DNA of 44,219 nt from Escherichia phage vB_EcoS-12210I. Location: the sequence record NC_049813.1, one strand, 5' to 3'. Shown here in pieces: positions 3,082 through 41,172 of this stretch; within the stretch, counting starts at the first letter, position 1, and every line of letters begins with the position of its first letter. A program made the position numbers and the translations under genes. The notes under the pieces were generated by a model. That model was not told the origin of the DNA. It searched no databases and saw only the letters and a program-made list of their open reading frames with translations.

Positions 3082-3730
3082 AATGAATATCAAGCCATTT
3101 AAAGATACCAACGTTGCCATGATGAGCACCAAAGAGATCGCGGGGTTAACTGGTAAAGAACATAATAAGGTAATTCGTGATGCCAAGGAAATGATCAATG
3201 ATTTGATACATTATAACAACTCCTCATACTTAAGGAGTGAGGATTATCAAGTACTTACAGATAATTTAGGCTATACATCAGAGATTTTACTTAACAAGGA
3301 ACTTACAGAAACGCTAATAACTGGCTACAGCGTCATTCTTCGTCACAGAGTTATCCGTCGACTTCATGAGCTTGAGGCGTTAGTTAAAAAACAAGCAGAA
3401 GTAATCAGCCAGATGGTAAGCATTAATGAACTTAAAGAGGTTCGAATGATGCTTGGTGTGGCTAATGCGCAGAATGCACACCTGAGCCAGCGCATTGTTG
3501 CAGAGCAAAGAATAAATGAGATCTTACTCATGGATAAGAGTACCGATGAAAAACTAGACATGCTGGCTTGTGAGGCTCGCCAGTGTTGGGCTAGTCGTTC
3601 TGATGAGATGGAGGAAAGATTTAAGTATGAAGCCCAATGCTTCGCCCTTAAAGAAAAGAATGATGCGCTGACTGGATTGATTGAGAATAATCTCGGAATT
3701 GACATTAAGCTGCTGCTGGAAAAGAAATAG
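3071..3730 (+). CDS. Rha-family phage regulatory protein (putative)
   Basis: N-terminal MSTKEIAGLTGKEHNKVIRDAKEM resembles the Rha/pRha motif; coiled-coil-like C-terminus. Confidence 0.5.
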   Translation: MAVKMNIKPFKDTNVAMMSTKEIAGLTGKEHNKVIRDAKEMINDLIHYNNSSYLRSEDYQVLTDNLGYTSEILLNKELTETLITGYSVILRHRVIRRLHELEALVKKQAEVISQMVSINELKEVRMMLGVANAQNAHLSQRIVAEQRINEILLMDKSTDEKLDMLACEARQCWASRSDEMEERFKYEAQCFALKEKNDALTGLIENNLGIDIKLLLEKK

Positions 3731-3805: not shown

Positions 3806-4036
3806 ATGAATAACTTCATCAAATCAGCAATCATCGCAGCAGCAGTAATCATGGCAGTTGGTTGTTCTTCTGGTCCTCGTCCTGATGGTTGGTGTGCAAC
3901 GTCCTCAAACGGCGTGTGCGTAGCTAAATGGAAAGGTGGCGTAGTTGTTCCGGCTGGTGAAATTGACATTCGCTACGATGGAATTAAAGGCTCCAGTGGC
4001 TCCGTTCGTGATTATGGCTCTAAGGAGTGGAATTAA
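3806..4036 (+). CDS. cor: Cor-like lipoprotein (putative receptor-blocking superinfection exclusion), 76 aa
   Basis: Signal peptide with lipobox (IMAVGC); small size; near tail genes as in T1/phi80/N15; ATG at 3806. Confidence 0.55.
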
Positions 4037-4971
4037 TGACTCAAGGTATATACATAGATCTTAATGATGGAAGGAATCCAATGACAATTACCGCAGGCAT
4101 GCGAGCCTTGAACTTTGCTGGAAACTTCAACGTTTCTAGTGGTGGATTTAGTAAGACGTTCTCAATCCAGGGAAATGAAGGGGCATCAAGGTTCCTTATC
4201 CCTAACAATGGAGCTTACTCATTCGAACTTGATAGAGGTGTTGAGATTTACTACATAAATGGATTCTCATCAACTGCATCAAGAGGAACGATATCGATTG
4301 GCTATGAGAATGGATATTCCGACCGTATAACTCAATTTTCTGGTACTGTTGTTGAGGTACTAAGAGCATCTACAGGCCAGGGTATTTACGTTTCTGACAG
4401 TACTGACTTTACTTCTATAACCACCACTGACAGGCTATTAGTATGCAAGTTTGCTCAGAGAATATCTTTCACCAACACATACACACTGCCAATTTATGGT
4501 ATACCGTTTGGAAAGTGGAACAACTCCGGCGTATCAGTTGAATACAATGGTAGTAACCAGCTGGTATGCACAAACATAAATACGGAAGATACTGGTGACA
4601 CTCCAGGAAGTGTAACTATGGACCTTCTTATATTTCAGATGGTAGCACCAACGCCAGGTCCTGGATTAAACATATTTAATTCAAATGGTGTTTGTACGCT
4701 GTCGACCGTAACTAGGCCATTGGTTGTTTCTGGATTCATAAACCTATCAGGTAGCAATCAGTACATTGGCGAATCTTACTTCCCAATACTCAGATGTGGG
4801 TTTAACACAAGGGCAATACGAGCATATAAGGAGTTGAGAAACAAAGGAATCGTAATGAGCAATGGGTATGTTAGATCTGGCACCGGCTCAAGGATTGTCA
4901 GATACGAGATAGGAAATAGGCCTGACGTAACAATATCAATGCCACTTCCTTACCTTCCTGATATGTATTAA
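4036..4971 (+). CDS. Hypothetical G/S/T/N/Y-rich protein, 311 aa, coupled to the Cor-like gene
   Basis: ATG 4036 overlaps Cor stop (TAATG); AAGGAG RBS; no recognisable catalytic motif. Confidence 0.5.
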   Translation: MTQGIYIDLNDGRNPMTITAGMRALNFAGNFNVSSGGFSKTFSIQGNEGASRFLIPNNGAYSFELDRGVEIYYINGFSSTASRGTISIGYENGYSDRITQFSGTVVEVLRASTGQGIYVSDSTDFTSITTTDRLLVCKFAQRISFTNTYTLPIYGIPFGKWNNSGVSVEYNGSNQLVCTNINTEDTGDTPGSVTMDLLIFQMVAPTPGPGLNIFNSNGVCTLSTVTRPLVVSGFINLSGSNQYIGESYFPILRCGFNTRAIRAYKELRNKGIVMSNGYVRSGTGSRIVRYEIGNRPDVTISMPLPYLPDMY

Positions 4972-7900: not shown

Positions 7901-8410
7901 CTGGTAAGCTCCACCATTAACAGAAAGGTCAATTGCATACTCGCAGGTTGTCCCGTTCAGGTCACCGTTACTCTCTTGCTTAACCAGTCTGGGCCAATAT
8001 AGCTTTACACGAATCGCTGATAGCTGATTATTGTTAACCGCAATGATGTGCGGGGTATCGTTTTTGATTTCCCTTGATACCTGAATTTCTGAGTTGGCAC
8101 CATCAAGGCCAGCGATATAGTCCTGATACTGCGTGCCAGCACGGAACTCAGCGCGAACACCTTCATAGTTGTAACTACCATCCTGATTTTGTACCGGAAC
8201 GTCAGCAAGGTATAAATCCTTCATTGAGAAGTTTGAATCCACCTCTCCGTCAGCAACCGCAAGCAACACCTTAACCTTGTTTAATGAAATAAGGTTGTCT
8301 TCCTGCTCAACTGGTTGATGCTGCTTCTGGCTACCACCTTTAGCACCATAAATCTTAATATCTTCAGCCATATCACAAAGCCTCATGTTTGTTTTGATCA
8401 TTTGTGCCAT
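5000..8410 (-). CDS. Central tail fibre / host specificity protein (lambda J-like), 1136 aa
   Basis: Size and position after I/K/L/M-like genes. Confidence 0.75.
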   Translation of the reverse strand: MAQMIKTNMRLCDMAEDIKIYGAKGGSQKQHQPVEQEDNLISLNKVKVLLAVADGEVDSNFSMKDLYLADVPVQNQDGSYNYEGVRAEFRAGTQYQDYIAGLDGANSEIQVSREIKNDTPHIIAVNNNQLSAIRVKLYWPRLVKQESNGDLNGTTCEYAIDLSVNGGAYQEYTRGVANGKTTTGYDRSIRVNLPAEFDSALVRIRKITPDSTSSTLVNGMQITTYQEVIDAKFRYPLTALVYVEFGSDLFPNGIPTISIKKRWKLIQVPTNYDPETRTYSGTWNGLFKMAWSNNPAWVLYDLVTNRRYGLDQRELGVEIDKWGLYEAAQFCDQMVPDGKGGLEPRYLCDMVVQNKAEAYTLIRDICSIFRGLTFYDGEKIGVVVDKPRNPSYIFTNDNVVNGLFSRTFASDKSLYTTANVQFDDVENNYQQDVEPVFELEATRRFGFNPVDLTAIGCTRRSEANRRGRWLLKTNLRSETISFTTGLEGMIPMIGEVIAVNDAAWSSNYQLNLSGRIESVQGLQVFTPFKVDAAPGDRILLNKPDGSPEARTIASVSEDGMTINLNTAFSFVAQPDTVFAIDKDNLALQQYVVTGIQKADSDGSDSFQYTITAVEYDPNKYDEIDYGVNIVDRPTSIVEPDRLSPPENLTVSSYSKVVQGLSVETMVIGWDKAPYAKTYNVQWRKENGNWINVPRTASAEVDIEGIYAGIYDVRVRSVSDTENVSAWSDIVTVSLTGKIGRPSAPTVITASTDEVFGIRVKWGFPEGSGDTAYTELQQVPDNGDGTYNPDNASLLTLLPYPAYEYWHTPIQPGKVIWYRARLIDRIGNTSDWSNFARGMSTDDANIINDYIKVDIEGSEGFKYLEQNAIQKNQDIQNQAESILQNALANDTDVRRMTKENGKRKAEYVQAVNLIADETQARVEALTQLKAQIDDEVVASITEVQTALATETEARTTADTALSARLGENEAALNQKLDAFSNATSTGVQYGISLGLKYNGQTYSSGMSMELVGTGGNVRSQFIFDANRFAISNGIGSGSGQWQLPFVVENGNVIIQSAVIGDGSITNAKIGDFIQSSNYVAGSTGWRIDKSGNAEIRGKLYANSGEFAFNGINNTVQINGNGITVNLPGGGRVVVGTF

Positions 8411-8422
8411 TCTACACTAAAT

Positions 8423-8443
8423 AAAAAACCCGCACTAGGCGGG
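8423..8443 (-). terminator. Intercistronic hairpin with U-run (I-J junction)
   Basis: CCCGC-ACTAG-GCGGG followed by T6 on the minus strand. Confidence 0.5.
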
Positions 8444-8451
8444 TATGATGT

Positions 8452-9024
8452 TTAAGCAATGTCTTCGGAATAACTGCCAGCACTAAATACCGAACCGCCA
8501 ACCGTTCGATAACCATAAGGTAGGCAAACAGGATAACCAGCGGCTACAGTGTTTACAGCTGAGCCAAATGCGTAAGAGGCGCGGTTGCTTGTTTGGTTGT
8601 CCTGCGTCTTTAATCCAGTTGCTTGAGGTGAAAGTAGCTGGGCAATACCGCCAGCAGCCAGAGAAACACCAGCGCCAACAAGATAAATCTGCCCGGTAAA
8701 GATGCCAACCGTGATAAGAGCGGCGCCTAAAATAGTCTGAAAAAGCCCGCCAGACTTACGGCCTTGAGGGATTGGTAAGATGCGTATCTCCTGAACGGCA
8801 CTAAAATCAGCTATTCGATGCTCGTTCACATTTTTACCATCCACAAAAATAGCATATCTGGTGTTTTGACCTACATGGCTATTCATGAACTCCTTGAACG
8901 CAGGGATCTGTGAGCAAAGTGCCCGCATAGCTTCAGGCACGCTACTCACCGCCATCTGGTGAATCTTTCCAAACCTGCGGCCTAGTGACAGGCCCAACTT
9001 AATGTCAATCAGCTTCTGAGTCAT
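8452..9024 (-). CDS. Tail assembly protein I-like
   Basis: 190 aa with hydrophobic Gly/Ala-rich C-half; synteny K-I-J. Confidence 0.65.
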   Translation of the reverse strand: MTQKLIDIKLGLSLGRRFGKIHQMAVSSVPEAMRALCSQIPAFKEFMNSHVGQNTRYAIFVDGKNVNEHRIADFSAVQEIRILPIPQGRKSGGLFQTILGAALITVGIFTGQIYLVGAGVSLAAGGIAQLLSPQATGLKTQDNQTSNRASYAFGSAVNTVAAGYPVCLPYGYRTVGGSVFSAGSYSEDIA

Positions 9025-13940: not shown

Positions 13941-13970
13941 AGAAAACCCGCCGAAGCGGGTTATTTTTTT
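13941..13970. terminator. Hairpin with runs on both sides (GT-tape measure junction)
   Basis: ACCCGC-CGAA-GCGGGT; T7 on plus side. Confidence 0.5.
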
Positions 13971-14595
13971 CTCAGGTTGTCCATCATCTCAAGAGCTTTA
14001 GCTTCAAGGATGCGTAAATCACTGAGCACCAATTCTTCTTCAGAAACATTATACACTCTAAAGAGGAAATTTAGCACGTTGTAATCAAGACCTGTTACTC
14101 CATTAGCTCCGACTCGCCACTGTGTAGCCATTGAACAATAAATGTCCCACGCCTTCATCATGTTATCGTCGAAGTGCAAAACTTCAGGCTCTTCGTCTTC
14201 GTAATCAGAGCGGCGCATCCCAATAGCTTCCAGTTCGGCATCAGTTGGTTCTGACTGGTACTGTAGATACACCGCTCGTTTTAGTTTTTTACACGCTGAC
14301 CAGCCAGTGCTTGCATATAGGCGGTAGTTAGCGCAACGGTTGAAGCAGGGAATAGGTCACAGAACTCATTAACGTTATCCTCGTTGTATTCCTCTTCCAA
14401 GTCCCAGTCAGAGGCAATTGCCATAATAAGCTCTTTGGTGCTCAAGTCTTCCTTTCTAAGTAATTCCTGCAACTCAGATGTTTTCTTATGTTTGACTGTA
14501 AAGATAACCTCTACATCCTGGTCGTTAGCCAGCTTAAATTTTACAGGCAACTTAAAGTCAGGGAGTGCTGCCAGTGAAAGTTTGAACTTTGCCAT
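13961..14595 (-). CDS. Tail assembly chaperone GT fusion made by -1 programmed frameshift
   Basis: Slippery heptamer AAAAAAC at 14284-14290 abuts the G stop; the -1 frame is open into the downstream ORF. Confidence 0.65.
14281..14595 (-). CDS. Tail assembly chaperone G-like, 104 aa
   Basis: Acidic small protein between major tail protein and tape measure. Confidence 0.7.
   Translation of the reverse strand: MAKFKLSLAALPDFKLPVKFKLANDQDVEVIFTVKHKKTSELQELLRKEDLSTKELIMAIASDWDLEEEYNEDNVNEFCDLFPASTVALTTAYMQALAGQRVKN
14284..14290 (-). other. -1 frameshift slippery site A_AAA_AAC
   Basis: X_XXY_YYZ heptamer in the G frame, 0 nt before the TAA stop. Confidence 0.65.
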
Positions 14596-14633
14596 TTTGT
14601 TAATCCTCTTATTGTTTGTGAGTGTGTATTCTA

Positions 14634-14882
14634 TTACTTAGTGTTTTCTTTTGCAATCTTAGCAGCGGTATCCTTGCAAATCTCGCTACCATATTTCATG
14701 ATTTGGTCAACTTTACCACCTACCAAACCCTTGCAAACTCGCTCGGCCTTAGCAAACTCAAAGTTATATTCGCTTGCCTTTGCATTGGCATAAGTCTCGC
14801 CAGTTGGGTTAACAATCTTAACTACCGCATAAAAAGCAACCAGAACCGCAGTAAGTTTGATGATGTTTTTAACGTTATTCAT
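14634..14882 (-). CDS. Moron-like secreted or membrane-anchored small protein, 82 aa
   Basis: N-terminal hydrophobic signal/anchor; own promoter-like module upstream and terminator-flanked; lies inside the tail gene cluster. Confidence 0.5.
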   Translation of the reverse strand: MNNVKNIIKLTAVLVAFYAVVKIVNPTGETYANAKASEYNFEFAKAERVCKGLVGGKVDQIMKYGSEICKDTAAKIAKENTK

Positions 14883-14915
14883 TTAATTAATCTCTCATTT
14901 CGTTTCGATGAGTTA

Positions 14916-14961
14916 ACTATACAGGAAGATTGGATTAACTCTTTAGCAAAAAGTGCCATGC
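14916..14961 (-). promoter_or_regulatory. Promoter-like module copy d (variant element) with TATAGT hexamer
   Basis: Element 14942-14961, hexamer 14916-14921, start region CATCGAAACGA downstream. Confidence 0.5.
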
Positions 14962-14964
14962 AAT

Positions 14965-14986
14965 AAAAAACCCTCCGAAGAGGGTT
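14965..14986 (-). terminator. Rho-independent terminator after the major tail protein gene
   Basis: CCCTC-CGAAG-AGGG followed by T6. Confidence 0.65.
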
Positions 14987-14992
14987 TGTGTT

Positions 14993-15649
14993 TTAAACTT
15001 TAGCTGCCACGGAGGACAGTCGACCACGAATGGATACCGCCATGGATACCGTTTCGATTTCGTTGACACCAATGGCAGGGATGTCATTGAAAGAGATAGT
15101 GCCGGACTGCAAGCGCATTTCCTGAGCGCGAGGTACGAACAGACGAATCGCAACAACCTGGCCAGACTCATCGTATTTACGCAGAACCGGATAGACCGGG
15201 TTGGTGTACTCGTGAGCAAAGGTGAAGGTGTTTGTTACCGCAGATTTATAAGTCGGAATCTGCTGTTCGCGTTCGTCAGAAAGGCACTGGAAGTTAACAA
15301 ACTGCTGTTCGCCGCCGTCAGTAGATACGTCCTGAACACACGGGACTTCGATCCATGAATTAATCTTAACAACCTCACCAGTTAAGCCAGCAGGGAACTT
15401 AGTGGCGTCGGAGGTATCAATACCTTCAACTGTTACCGAAGTGCCAGAAACTTCAGTTACTCGCACCTGTTTGTCGCTAAGTAGGGTTGAGCTGGAGGCG
15501 GTAAACAGAAGGTAGTCACCCTTAGCCAGGCCAGATGCGCTAGATACGGTTAAAACTGGTTTAGTTGCGTTAGAGATTTTAGTTACGTTAATTGGAGTTC
15601 CGCGAGTTCCTTCTACGAAGACCTGCGTGCCATTTGATAAATGAGCCAT
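14993..15649 (-). CDS. Major tail protein
   Basis: 218 aa immediately upstream of G/GT. Confidence 0.7.
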   Translation of the reverse strand: MAHLSNGTQVFVEGTRGTPINVTKISNATKPVLTVSSASGLAKGDYLLFTASSSTLLSDKQVRVTEVSGTSVTVEGIDTSDATKFPAGLTGEVVKINSWIEVPCVQDVSTDGGEQQFVNFQCLSDEREQQIPTYKSAVTNTFTFAHEYTNPVYPVLRKYDESGQVVAIRLFVPRAQEMRLQSGTISFNDIPAIGVNEIETVSMAVSIRGRLSSVAAKV

Positions 15650-34182: not shown

Positions 34183-34398
34183 TTATTTGCTCCTTATATT
34201 GATTGCTGTTTTCAAGTCTCCAGATTCAAGCGCCCGCCTGATAGCTTGACTATCCTTATACTTCCAGTAAGCACCCCAGGCTCCGAAAATGATTAGAGCG
34301 ATAAGGCTGATTATTGCTATAGTCATTTGACCAGTTGCCGCACCAGTAAACGCAGCACCGCCAGTTGATGCTGTAGCGGCGTTAATTACTTCTCTCAT
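34183..34398 (-). CDS. Holin (putative pinholin), about 71 aa
   Basis: Hydrophobic transmembrane segments; AAAGGTGGA RBS before ATG 34398; immediately upstream of the endolysin. Confidence 0.6.
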   Translation of the reverse strand: MREVINAATASTGGAAFTGAATGQMTIAIISLIALIIFGAWGAYWKYKDSQAIRRALESGDLKTAINIRSK

Positions 34399-39629: not shown

Positions 39630-40103
39630 ATGAATGCAGTAGACAAGCGAACCATTAACGGCAATAACGGAACCATCCGCACTGAAGATAAAAAGCAGCG
39701 AAAACGACCTTCAGGTTACTACGTTTTAAAAGATGAAGTAAGAGCGGGTTTACGTGCGCGGCTGGAAATTGTTCTTGATTTCTTCGGCACAAAGGCAAAT
39801 ATGGCAAAGCAATTAAAGGTAACACCACAGGCTGTAGAAGAATGGTTTAAGCGCGGCATGATGTCGGCGCGTGGTGCTCAGCTTTCGCACAACTACTATA
39901 AGCGAAATGGAGAAGGTTTTCGCGCAACATTCTGCCGACCAGACTTGCAATTCGACGGCAACGGCAAGCCGCTGACACTTCGGTGCAAAAAACGCCACAT
40001 GCTTCGCGTGGTTACCGAGGCTGAATTAGCCACCAAGCCAGAGTGTCGGTCCTGGCGCAAAATTAAGGCCGCTAACGAAGCAGCACGGAAAGCTAAAGAG
40101 TAA
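39630..40103 (+). CDS. Putative HTH DNA-binding protein, 157 aa
   Basis: GAGG RBS; HTH-like KANMAKQLKVTPQAVEEWFKRG. Confidence 0.45.
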   Translation: MNAVDKRTINGNNGTIRTEDKKQRKRPSGYYVLKDEVRAGLRARLEIVLDFFGTKANMAKQLKVTPQAVEEWFKRGMMSARGAQLSHNYYKRNGEGFRATFCRPDLQFDGNGKPLTLRCKKRHMLRVVTEAELATKPECRSWRKIKAANEAARKAKE

Positions 40104-41138: not shown

Positions 41139-41172
41139 TGATACAATCCAACTTATCAATTAGTGCTATTTT
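41139..41172 (+). promoter_or_regulatory. Candidate tail-fibre promoter (TGATACAAT extended -10 at 41139-41147) overlapped at +1 by an inverted copy of the 20-bp element (41153-41172)
   Basis: Element copy q is in the opposite orientation to all other plus-gene copies and lies downstream of the -10. Confidence 0.4.

Follow-up and report, generated by a model that had tools for sequence, protein, structure and literature searches.

A small promoter-bearing gene between the tail-tube and chaperone genes of a T1-like Escherichia phage and its possible role in superinfection exclusion

Escherichia phage vB_EcoS-12210I, a T1-like coliphage of the Drexlerviridae subfamily Braunvirinae, carries a small open reading frame (ORF) of 82 amino acids (positions 14634–14882, minus strand) between its major tail (tube) protein gene and its tail assembly chaperone genes, and this ORF is preceded by a promoter-like module. 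The analysis covers the whole 44,219-bp stretch of DNA (NC_049813.1), referred to here as the window. Judged from substitution patterns, the ORF is a real gene under purifying selection, and sequence comparison indicates that ORF and module form a lineage-restricted insertion acquired by the Braunvirinae. The best explanation overall, to which we give tentative preference at somewhat less than even confidence, is that this promoter-plus-gene cassette of the Braunvirinae encodes an exported protein that acts in superinfection exclusion at the envelope. A preliminary description of the region had listed an ORF, a terminator, a promoter-like module, an N-terminal signal or anchor and two cysteines, and all of these were located on the minus strand at the positions it had given.

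Gene, insertion and slot at the tail-tube–chaperone junction

Constraint on the amino-acid sequence extends along the whole ORF. The ratio of non-synonymous to synonymous substitution rates (dN/dS) is 0.14–0.31 against ten homologues and 0.03–0.18 within allele-like groups, which are about 95%, 80% and 50% identical to the window copy and are each under purifying selection. The N-terminal third and the remainder are both constrained, and 30 of the 82 alignment columns, including both cysteines, are invariant. The neighbouring genes change more slowly, with dN/dS values of 0.02–0.12 for chaperone G and 0.11–0.20 for the tail-tube protein. Residues 1–82 of the product align with profile positions 1–82 of phrog_22925, a family of unknown function (E = 1.2e-44). 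A plus-strand ORF of 114 amino acids (14622–14966) was considered and rejected, its product being 75, 39 and 36% identical versus 79, 52 and 51% for the 82-amino-acid frame, which is the one under purifying selection. The G+C content of the gene is 39.8%, at the 12th percentile of the genome (mean 44.4%, standard deviation 4.1%), and that of its neighbours is 42.5% and 48.6%.

Homologues are confined to about 80 Braunvirinae-type records, whereas the tail-tube protein family is represented in 1156 phage records, and the gene context is the same on every checked contig carrying the ORF. The gene is therefore not a universal structural component, which agrees with its earlier treatment as an insert. 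The protein has no match in Pfam (E up to 1), NCBIfam or PADLOC models, and a sequence search of the PDB returned nothing. A word-indexed search of 5.8 billion proteins found Braunvirinae-type homologues only, and a hidden Markov model profile search of 1.84 billion representative proteins returned the protein's own cluster and one marginal match to an 869-amino-acid protein. A scan of IMG/VR with the chaperone protein gave 13 loci, at least five of which match GenBank genomes already in the set. Homologues of about 80% identity are also found under the labels Pseudomonas phage PsgS01F and Campylobacter phage A110b, and one more is a protein attributed to Nitratidesulfovibrio liaohensis; these are probably T1-like coliphage contaminants or have misattributed hosts. 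The region itself is 100% identical to that of a series of Escherichia phages named vB_EcoS-…, for which the isolation host is E. coli DSM 12242, and the nearest annotated relatives belong to the Braunvirinae genera Guelphvirus, Veterinaerplatzvirus and Rtpvirus.

The position of the ORF between the major tail protein and chaperone genes was confirmed by domain assignments. On the upstream side lies the tail-tube gene (14993–15649, minus strand), whose product matches PF08813 (6.6e-67) and phrog_584 (6.2e-88) and is 88% identical to the JeanPiccard major tail protein, and on the downstream side lie the genes for chaperone G (14281–14595, minus strand; PF08748, 1.2e-33) and the chaperone T part (13961–14272, minus strand; DUF1799). 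In T1 (Tunavirinae), phiKP26 and Sd1 (Rogunavirinae), DanielBernoulli (Tempevirinae) and KPN N141 (Webervirus), the tail-tube gene is directly followed by the chaperone gene, and the gap of 42–113 bp between them holds a terminator and then, in all but T1, a -10-like sequence. The tail-tube terminator of the window (14962–14987, minus strand; stem-loop 14987–14968 followed by the U-run) has a G+C-rich 8-bp stem, a UUCG loop and a U6 tail, and folds at -11.5 kcal/mol (z = -2.8), with 3 of 200 shuffled sequences folding equally well. Since an equivalent follows the tail-tube gene in each of these phages without the ORF, it is the ancestral tail-tube terminator and lies outside the insertion.

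The inserted segment measures about 330 bp and is situated between the T-run of this terminator and the chaperone-side -10; in comparison with phiKP26, its left edge is the T-run and its right edge the stop codon of the ORF. At the right edge, TAGAAT-4nt-ACTCA…AAACAA…GAGGATTA…ATG in the window corresponds to TGTTATAAT-4nt-ACTCA…ACAAAC…GAGGATTA…ATG in phiKP26, a match that was read by eye and that the ragged automatic alignment did not recover. TAGAAT seems to be the -10 that the chaperone genes had ancestrally, still in place, and marks where the inserted segment ends on the right. With TTGCAA, which lies 17 nt upstream within the last codons of the ORF, it makes up a weak sigma-70-like promoter across the stop codon (14628–14656, minus strand; 9 of 12 matches) that alone is not significant.

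The slot so defined is occupied in every Braunvirinae relative found. It holds the 82-amino-acid protein in Guelphvirus and Veterinaerplatzvirus, and rtp34 in Rtp, RobRod40, MM01 and AugustePiccard (four phages, five records). The rtp34 gene shares the slot, terminator, promoter module and leader with the 82-amino-acid gene, as far as the ATG, and its product is also exported, but it is an unrelated lipoprotein of 128 amino acids with no function assigned (MKAIIAIMATLLLAGC…, with an LLAGC lipobox; 8381–8767 in Rtp, L009). In TR3, an extra peptide of 46 amino acids with two hydrophobic stretches is encoded ahead of the ORF homologue (1342–1482 of L023). All three types of cargo are predicted envelope proteins.

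The promoter module and predicted transcription across the junction

The module in front of the ORF (14958–14900, minus strand) is oriented with the gene, and all its parts are in register. It consists of the direct-repeat element TGGCACTTTTTGCTA (14944–14958; consensus TAGCAC-N3-TTGCTA), a 22-nt spacer and the -10-like hexamer TATAGT (together 14916–14943; spacer 14943–14922, hexamer 14921–14916), and, after a further 5 nt, the putative initial transcribed sequence CATCGAAACGA (14910–14900), which opens a 5' leader with a GAGAG Shine-Dalgarno sequence (14883–14910). Transcription would be expected to start near 14909, at the A of CATCG, and with this start the centre of the repeat would lie near -42, where class II activators bind. 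A -35 element at the usual 17-nt spacing is absent from the aligned window copies of the module, and the spacers frequently contain a hairpin.

Copies of the module occur in the window beyond chance. With at most one mismatch allowed, CATCGAAACGA was observed 7 times versus 0.69 expected and the palindromic core TAGCA-N5-TGCTA 20 times versus 1.9 expected, and neither count was reached in any of 100 shuffles. The 18 repeat copies, with the aligned form aaaTAGCAC-N3-TTGCTAaa, are located at 694-, 2544+, 3728+, 14958-, 25609-, 26441-, 26881-, 27334-, 27840-, 29765+, 30411+, 32993+, 33151+, 34788-, 37120-, 39616-, 40110+ and 41168- (position and strand). A -10-like hexamer (TATAGT, TATAAT, TATTAT or TATGAT) stands exactly 22 nt past the repeat in 15 of them, and in the aligned copies a CATCGAAACGA-like start region comes another 5 nt further on. 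Each of the 15 copies faces the next gene. The preliminary description was thus right that the ORF is preceded by a promoter-like module of the same type as those found genome-wide, as far as sequence can tell. The repeats may be bound by the product of a Cro-like or helix-turn-helix regulator gene (39630–40103), which is a candidate for this function. At 41168–41100 (minus strand), in the interval from the primase gene to the lateral tail fibre gene, a repeat without a -10 at the usual distance is followed by a strong hairpin, GGCATAaaaaaACCTCCCGAAGGAGG; this arrangement is conserved at L008 28098, ACG-M12 (L026) 32099 and L027 22273, and may represent a regulatory or decoy site.

In phage TLS, a repeat aaATAGCACnnnTTGnTAAAA with no function assigned has been described; its 21 copies are located some 76 nt ahead of start codons (PMC11447400). 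The upstream element of the window module is the same repeat as these 21-nt direct repeats of TLS and T1, in the same orientation, and the module copy of the ORF begins exactly 76 nt upstream of the ATG. Whereas the TLS description has no fixed partner elements (PMC11447400), the window repeat is part of a composite with the 22-nt spacer, the -10 hexamer, the 5 nt and CATCGAAACGA. Among the 12 loci compared, the repeat of the window ORF has one A>G change (TGGCAC), the relatives having TAGCAC at this site in 11 of 11 cases. The spacer at this locus is variable in sequence and constant in length among relatives, as expected for two elements that are read together. The leader up to the ATG is also conserved among relatives, including Rtp, where another gene follows.

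The structural genes, as placed by mapping JeanPiccard proteins on the window, are all on the minus strand and run from the small terminase gene (24429) to that of the J-like tip protein (5003), and the module of the ORF is the sole copy, at up to one mismatch, in this 19.5-kb block. In relatives, the remaining structural-block copies (L008 505; L027 38899; Rtp, L009, 427 and 13395; ACG-M12, L026, 5967 and 18847) all precede facultative genes. In JeanPiccard and TR3 these encode HNH endonucleases and follow the small terminase gene, and in Rtp an HNH endonuclease gene follows a minor tail gene; ACG-M12 and Rtp also have genes for small additional 'virion structural' proteins, placed after that of the large terminase or of a minor tail protein. 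Hence, a module plus a gene looks like the usual form of insertion in this family. At the junction itself, the module is absent from the subfamilies without the ORF, save for a reversed copy in T1. There, the repeat TAGCACTTTTTGTTA is followed after 22 nt by TAAGAT between the tail-tube and chaperone genes (L003 3249–3263, minus strand of the locus) and is aimed back at the tail-tube gene and its terminator. This copy may serve as an antisense start, or it may simply be a binding site.

The gene had also been credited with a terminator of its own and with expression independent of the late operon. The only terminator at the ORF is the ancestral one upstream; the terminator scan found no terminator-like site between 14634 and 14281, and no hairpin forms in the 38 nt that separate the ORF from the chaperone gene (-1.0 kcal/mol, z = 0.15), so that the claim of an own terminator does not hold. 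A single transcript would be expected to cover the ORF and the chaperone G and T genes and to end at the terminator at 13962–13945 (minus strand; -12.5 kcal/mol), ahead of the tape measure gene (13925–10950, minus strand). Because nothing terminates between the ORF and the chaperone genes, the module promoter would also feed the latter, and the ORF is not autonomous; what stands of the proposed independent expression is that the gene has its own promoter module at the sequence level. Rtp no longer has the ancestral -10 in front of its chaperone gene, and therefore the module must drive the chaperone genes there.

The putatively exported product and its possible functions

The N-terminus of the protein has the appearance of an export signal. 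Residues 1–9 contain K5 and K9 and are followed by a hydrophobic stretch, L10–V24 (best Kyte-Doolittle 19-mer 1.95). In the homologue alignment, N25-P26 and N33 are invariant and A32 is nearly invariant, and a small-x-small motif reads T-Y-A32|N33 in the window copy, most homologues having A-D-A or A-T-A instead. The predicted layout is a signal or anchor (residues 1–32) followed by a two-helix part of about 50 residues, and C50 and C69 are invariant in 23 homologues. In phage MSK, whose tail-tube and tape measure proteins are MSK_000010 and MSK_000014, respectively, MSK_000011 is one of only two proteins that are SignalP 4.1-positive and is also TMHMM-positive (PMC8421802). Matched by gene order, MSK_000011 is taken as the MSK homologue of the ORF, with 80.5% identity. 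From these features, the 82-amino-acid product looks envelope-targeted.

We hypothesize that the module restarts transcription past the strong tail-tube terminator, the 82-amino-acid protein being the first product of the new transcript. The protein would be exported via Sec and would either remain as an inner-membrane anchor (N-in, C-out) or be cleaved after A/T-x-A32, which would place the helical domain of 50 residues with its two cysteines in the periplasm. There it would act on the envelope of the infected cell and stop further phages, with exclusion at or beyond the receptor step. An envelope-level block on incoming phages is the most likely role of the protein, and it would complement the Rtp45-type lipoprotein that is encoded beside the receptor-binding protein gene. 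This lipoprotein gene (3806–4036, plus strand; PF24052, 1.4e-35; product 84% identical to Rtp45) has a full promoter module in front of it, at 3728, and is followed by the gene for the DUF6453 receptor-binding protein (4036–4971, plus strand; 96% identical to that of JeanPiccard). The two genes are neighbours of the tip protein gene and represent an established exclusion pair. Rtp45 binds LptDE from the periplasm and thereby blocks attachment of the receptor-binding protein (PMC12685063). JeanPiccard targets LptD, and given the near-identical receptor-binding protein and the Rtp45-like lipoprotein, the window phage is predicted to use LptD as well.

Alleles of the ORF were compared with those of other genes in five Braunvirinae genomes. 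In ACG-M12, the ORF product is 52% identical to that of the window, and the flanking structural genes are 88–98% identical; the only other strongly diverged genes of the structural block are those of the receptor-binding protein (41%) and its lipoprotein (70%), a pattern that hints at a link to host recognition. Tracking of the tape measure protein by the ORF alleles, as for HK97 gp15, was rejected, as the ACG-M12 tape measure protein is 96% identical and the ORF product 52%. A more specific proposal goes beyond exclusion as such and holds that the junction is a dedicated, always-occupied slot in which envelope-targeted proteins can be exchanged, and that the 82-amino-acid protein represents a new family of periplasmic factors, active in exclusion or in the receptor pathway, with alleles that follow the receptor-binding module; it might act on LptD or the Lpt machinery via its cysteines. 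We consider this proposal doubtful; against a strict receptor link, TR3 shares the cargo family but differs in its receptor-binding locus.

A number of observations weigh against superinfection exclusion. Co-variation with the receptor-binding protein is seen in what amounts to a single independent mosaic, ACG-M12, and the Rtp receptor-binding protein is 79% identical, yet the slot cargo of Rtp differs. No homology ties the 82-amino-acid protein to any function in Pfam, NCBIfam, PADLOC, PDB or profile searches, and an exclusion lipoprotein is already encoded in the window, so that a second factor is not required. An anchor is as conceivable as a cleaved signal peptide, since the signal is 32 residues long with extended h- and c-regions, TMHMM also calls a membrane helix (MSK_000011), and K22 lies within the hydrophobic stretch of the window copy. 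The AlphaFold2 model, which has three helices, is weak (pLDDT 63), and a Foldseek search of it against BFVD gave no match below E = 0.6. Estimated from the helix positions, C50 and C69 should be too far apart for an intramolecular disulfide in this model, so that a disulfide with a partner or within a dimer is possible. Promoter activity, its timing and terminator efficiency are predictions, and no transcriptome or start-site data for Drexlerviridae were found in the literature.

Of the other functions that may be considered, modulation of the host envelope or of lysis for the phage itself, by antiholin-like timing, through the Lpt and lipopolysaccharide machinery or in periplasmic disulfide formation, is conceivable, although we think it unlikely. 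T4 RI-type antiholins consist of an N-terminal hydrophobic segment and a small periplasmic domain, and the single N-terminal hydrophobic segment and small periplasmic domain predicted for the 82-amino-acid protein resemble this topology. The invariance of the two cysteines and the use of LptD both by JeanPiccard and by AugustePiccard, which carries an rtp34 homologue, also speak for such a role. However, the gene is distant from the lysis cassette (holin gene at about 34186–34398), the TR3 homologue coexists with a different type of receptor-binding locus, and PHROGs, Pfam and profile searches revealed no similarity to known lysis regulators. A protein that counters a host defence or protects progeny, for instance by keeping new virions from adsorbing to debris or vesicles or by masking a trigger of abortive infection that is located in the envelope, could account for the fast, allele-like evolution under purifying selection, which is typical of conflict genes, and for a slot that is always filled in the Braunvirinae found and whose exported cargo is exchangeable. 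We rate this as less probable again, given the lack of a PADLOC match, the fact that no partner was found and the functional overlap with the Rtp45-type lipoprotein already encoded.

It has further to be considered that the protein itself might barely matter and that the cassette is kept for a promoter restarting tail-gene transcription, with the ORF as a passenger or leader. This would fit a sole structural-block module that lies just past a strong terminator, with no further terminator after the ORF, as well as the situation in Rtp described above, in which the module must drive the chaperone genes. The low dN/dS within allele groups (0.03–0.18) and the 30 invariant columns of 82 reflect selection on the amino-acid sequence, however, and other subfamilies cope without the cassette, which makes this explanation quite improbable. 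Slightly less credit still can be given to a tail-assembly or virion component of the lineage with Rtp-like 'rosette' tails, even though the gene lies inside the tail block, is predicted to be co-transcribed with the chaperone genes and is found in the Braunvirinae only. Phages whose tail-tube and chaperone proteins are about 60% identical lack the ORF, and Rtp, the archetype of the rosette tail, has a lipoprotein instead while its tail-tube and chaperone proteins are 87–94% identical. An export signal and conserved cysteines are moreover unfit for cytoplasmic assembly, and the virion proteins of MSK that were named on detection do not include it (PMC8421802). Its absence from phages with similar tails, its replacement by a lipoprotein in Rtp and the export signal therefore make a structural role unlikely.

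Relation to known systems and significance

The gene between the tail chaperone and tape measure genes of HK97, gene 15, is a moron that encodes an inner-membrane superinfection exclusion protein (PMC3594210). The 82-amino-acid gene resembles it in being a small extra gene with a promoter beside the chaperone genes of a siphovirus tail operon, in its envelope-directed product and in being missing from relatives. The primary studies of gene 15 are reportedly those of Juhala 2000 and Cumby 2012. HK97 gene 15 is located past the chaperone genes, carries a terminator and is expressed from the prophage, whereas the window gene lies ahead of the chaperone genes, lacks such a terminator and is part of a virulent phage genome; an integrase is not annotated in the complete genomes of the relatives JeanPiccard, ACG-M12 and TR3. 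Also, an exclusion phenotype has been demonstrated for gp15, in contrast to the window protein, which shows no sequence similarity to it and no YebO, Pfam or NCBIfam match. The 82-amino-acid gene can thus be regarded as analogous to HK97 gene 15 in logic and genomic position, and not as a member of its family.

By the definition of morons of Juhala et al. 2000 (via PMC3594210), the cassette qualifies as an extra gene between genes that are adjacent in relatives, and at the sequence level it has its own promoter immediately upstream. A downstream terminator of its own is missing, and expression from a repressed prophage does not apply to a virulent Drexlerviridae phage. The term 'moron-like' used in the preliminary description is fair for the architecture, that is, an inserted promoter-plus-gene cassette for an envelope protein; it does not extend to the terminator or to the lifestyle of the phage, and the G+C content, which in a moron differs from that of the neighbouring genes, is only mildly low.

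Receptor-masking exclusion lipoproteins are known from several phages and include T5 Llp, the Cor proteins of T1 and phi80, and Rtp45 (PF24052; PMC9586334, PMC12685063). Like these small exported proteins of virulent siphophages, the 82-amino-acid protein would act in the periplasm of the infected cell, but the true member of this group in the window is the product of 3806–4036. The 82-amino-acid protein differs from it in having no lipobox, its first cysteine being residue 50, in having no PF24052 match and in not being encoded beside the receptor-binding protein gene. In the virulent phage T4, the small exported or membrane proteins Spackle and Imm block entry of the superinfecting genome, and Spackle is a small helical periplasmic protein. 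The window protein has no sequence or detectable fold similarity to either of them, and the tail-lysozyme target is not evident in the window phage. The 82-amino-acid protein is a new, uncharacterised example of a familiar class, namely a small exported accessory protein encoded by a promoter-plus-gene cassette in a tail operon.

T1-like phages are frequent laboratory contaminants, candidates for therapy and members of the BASEL collection, and most of their small genes are functionally uncharacterised. Two broader points emerge, namely that the cargo of the slot is exchangeable and that the promoter module of the T1 family has a fixed architecture: the junction marks a recombination slot at which small exported proteins are swapped, and accessory genes each bring a copy of the promoter module. 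If expression of the 82-amino-acid protein had no phenotype, the gene would be an ordinary orphan accessory gene. If it is a true exclusion factor, phages that target LptD would have a second layer of exclusion, one not formed by a lipoprotein, and carriers could exclude one another, which would bear on the design of phage cocktails.

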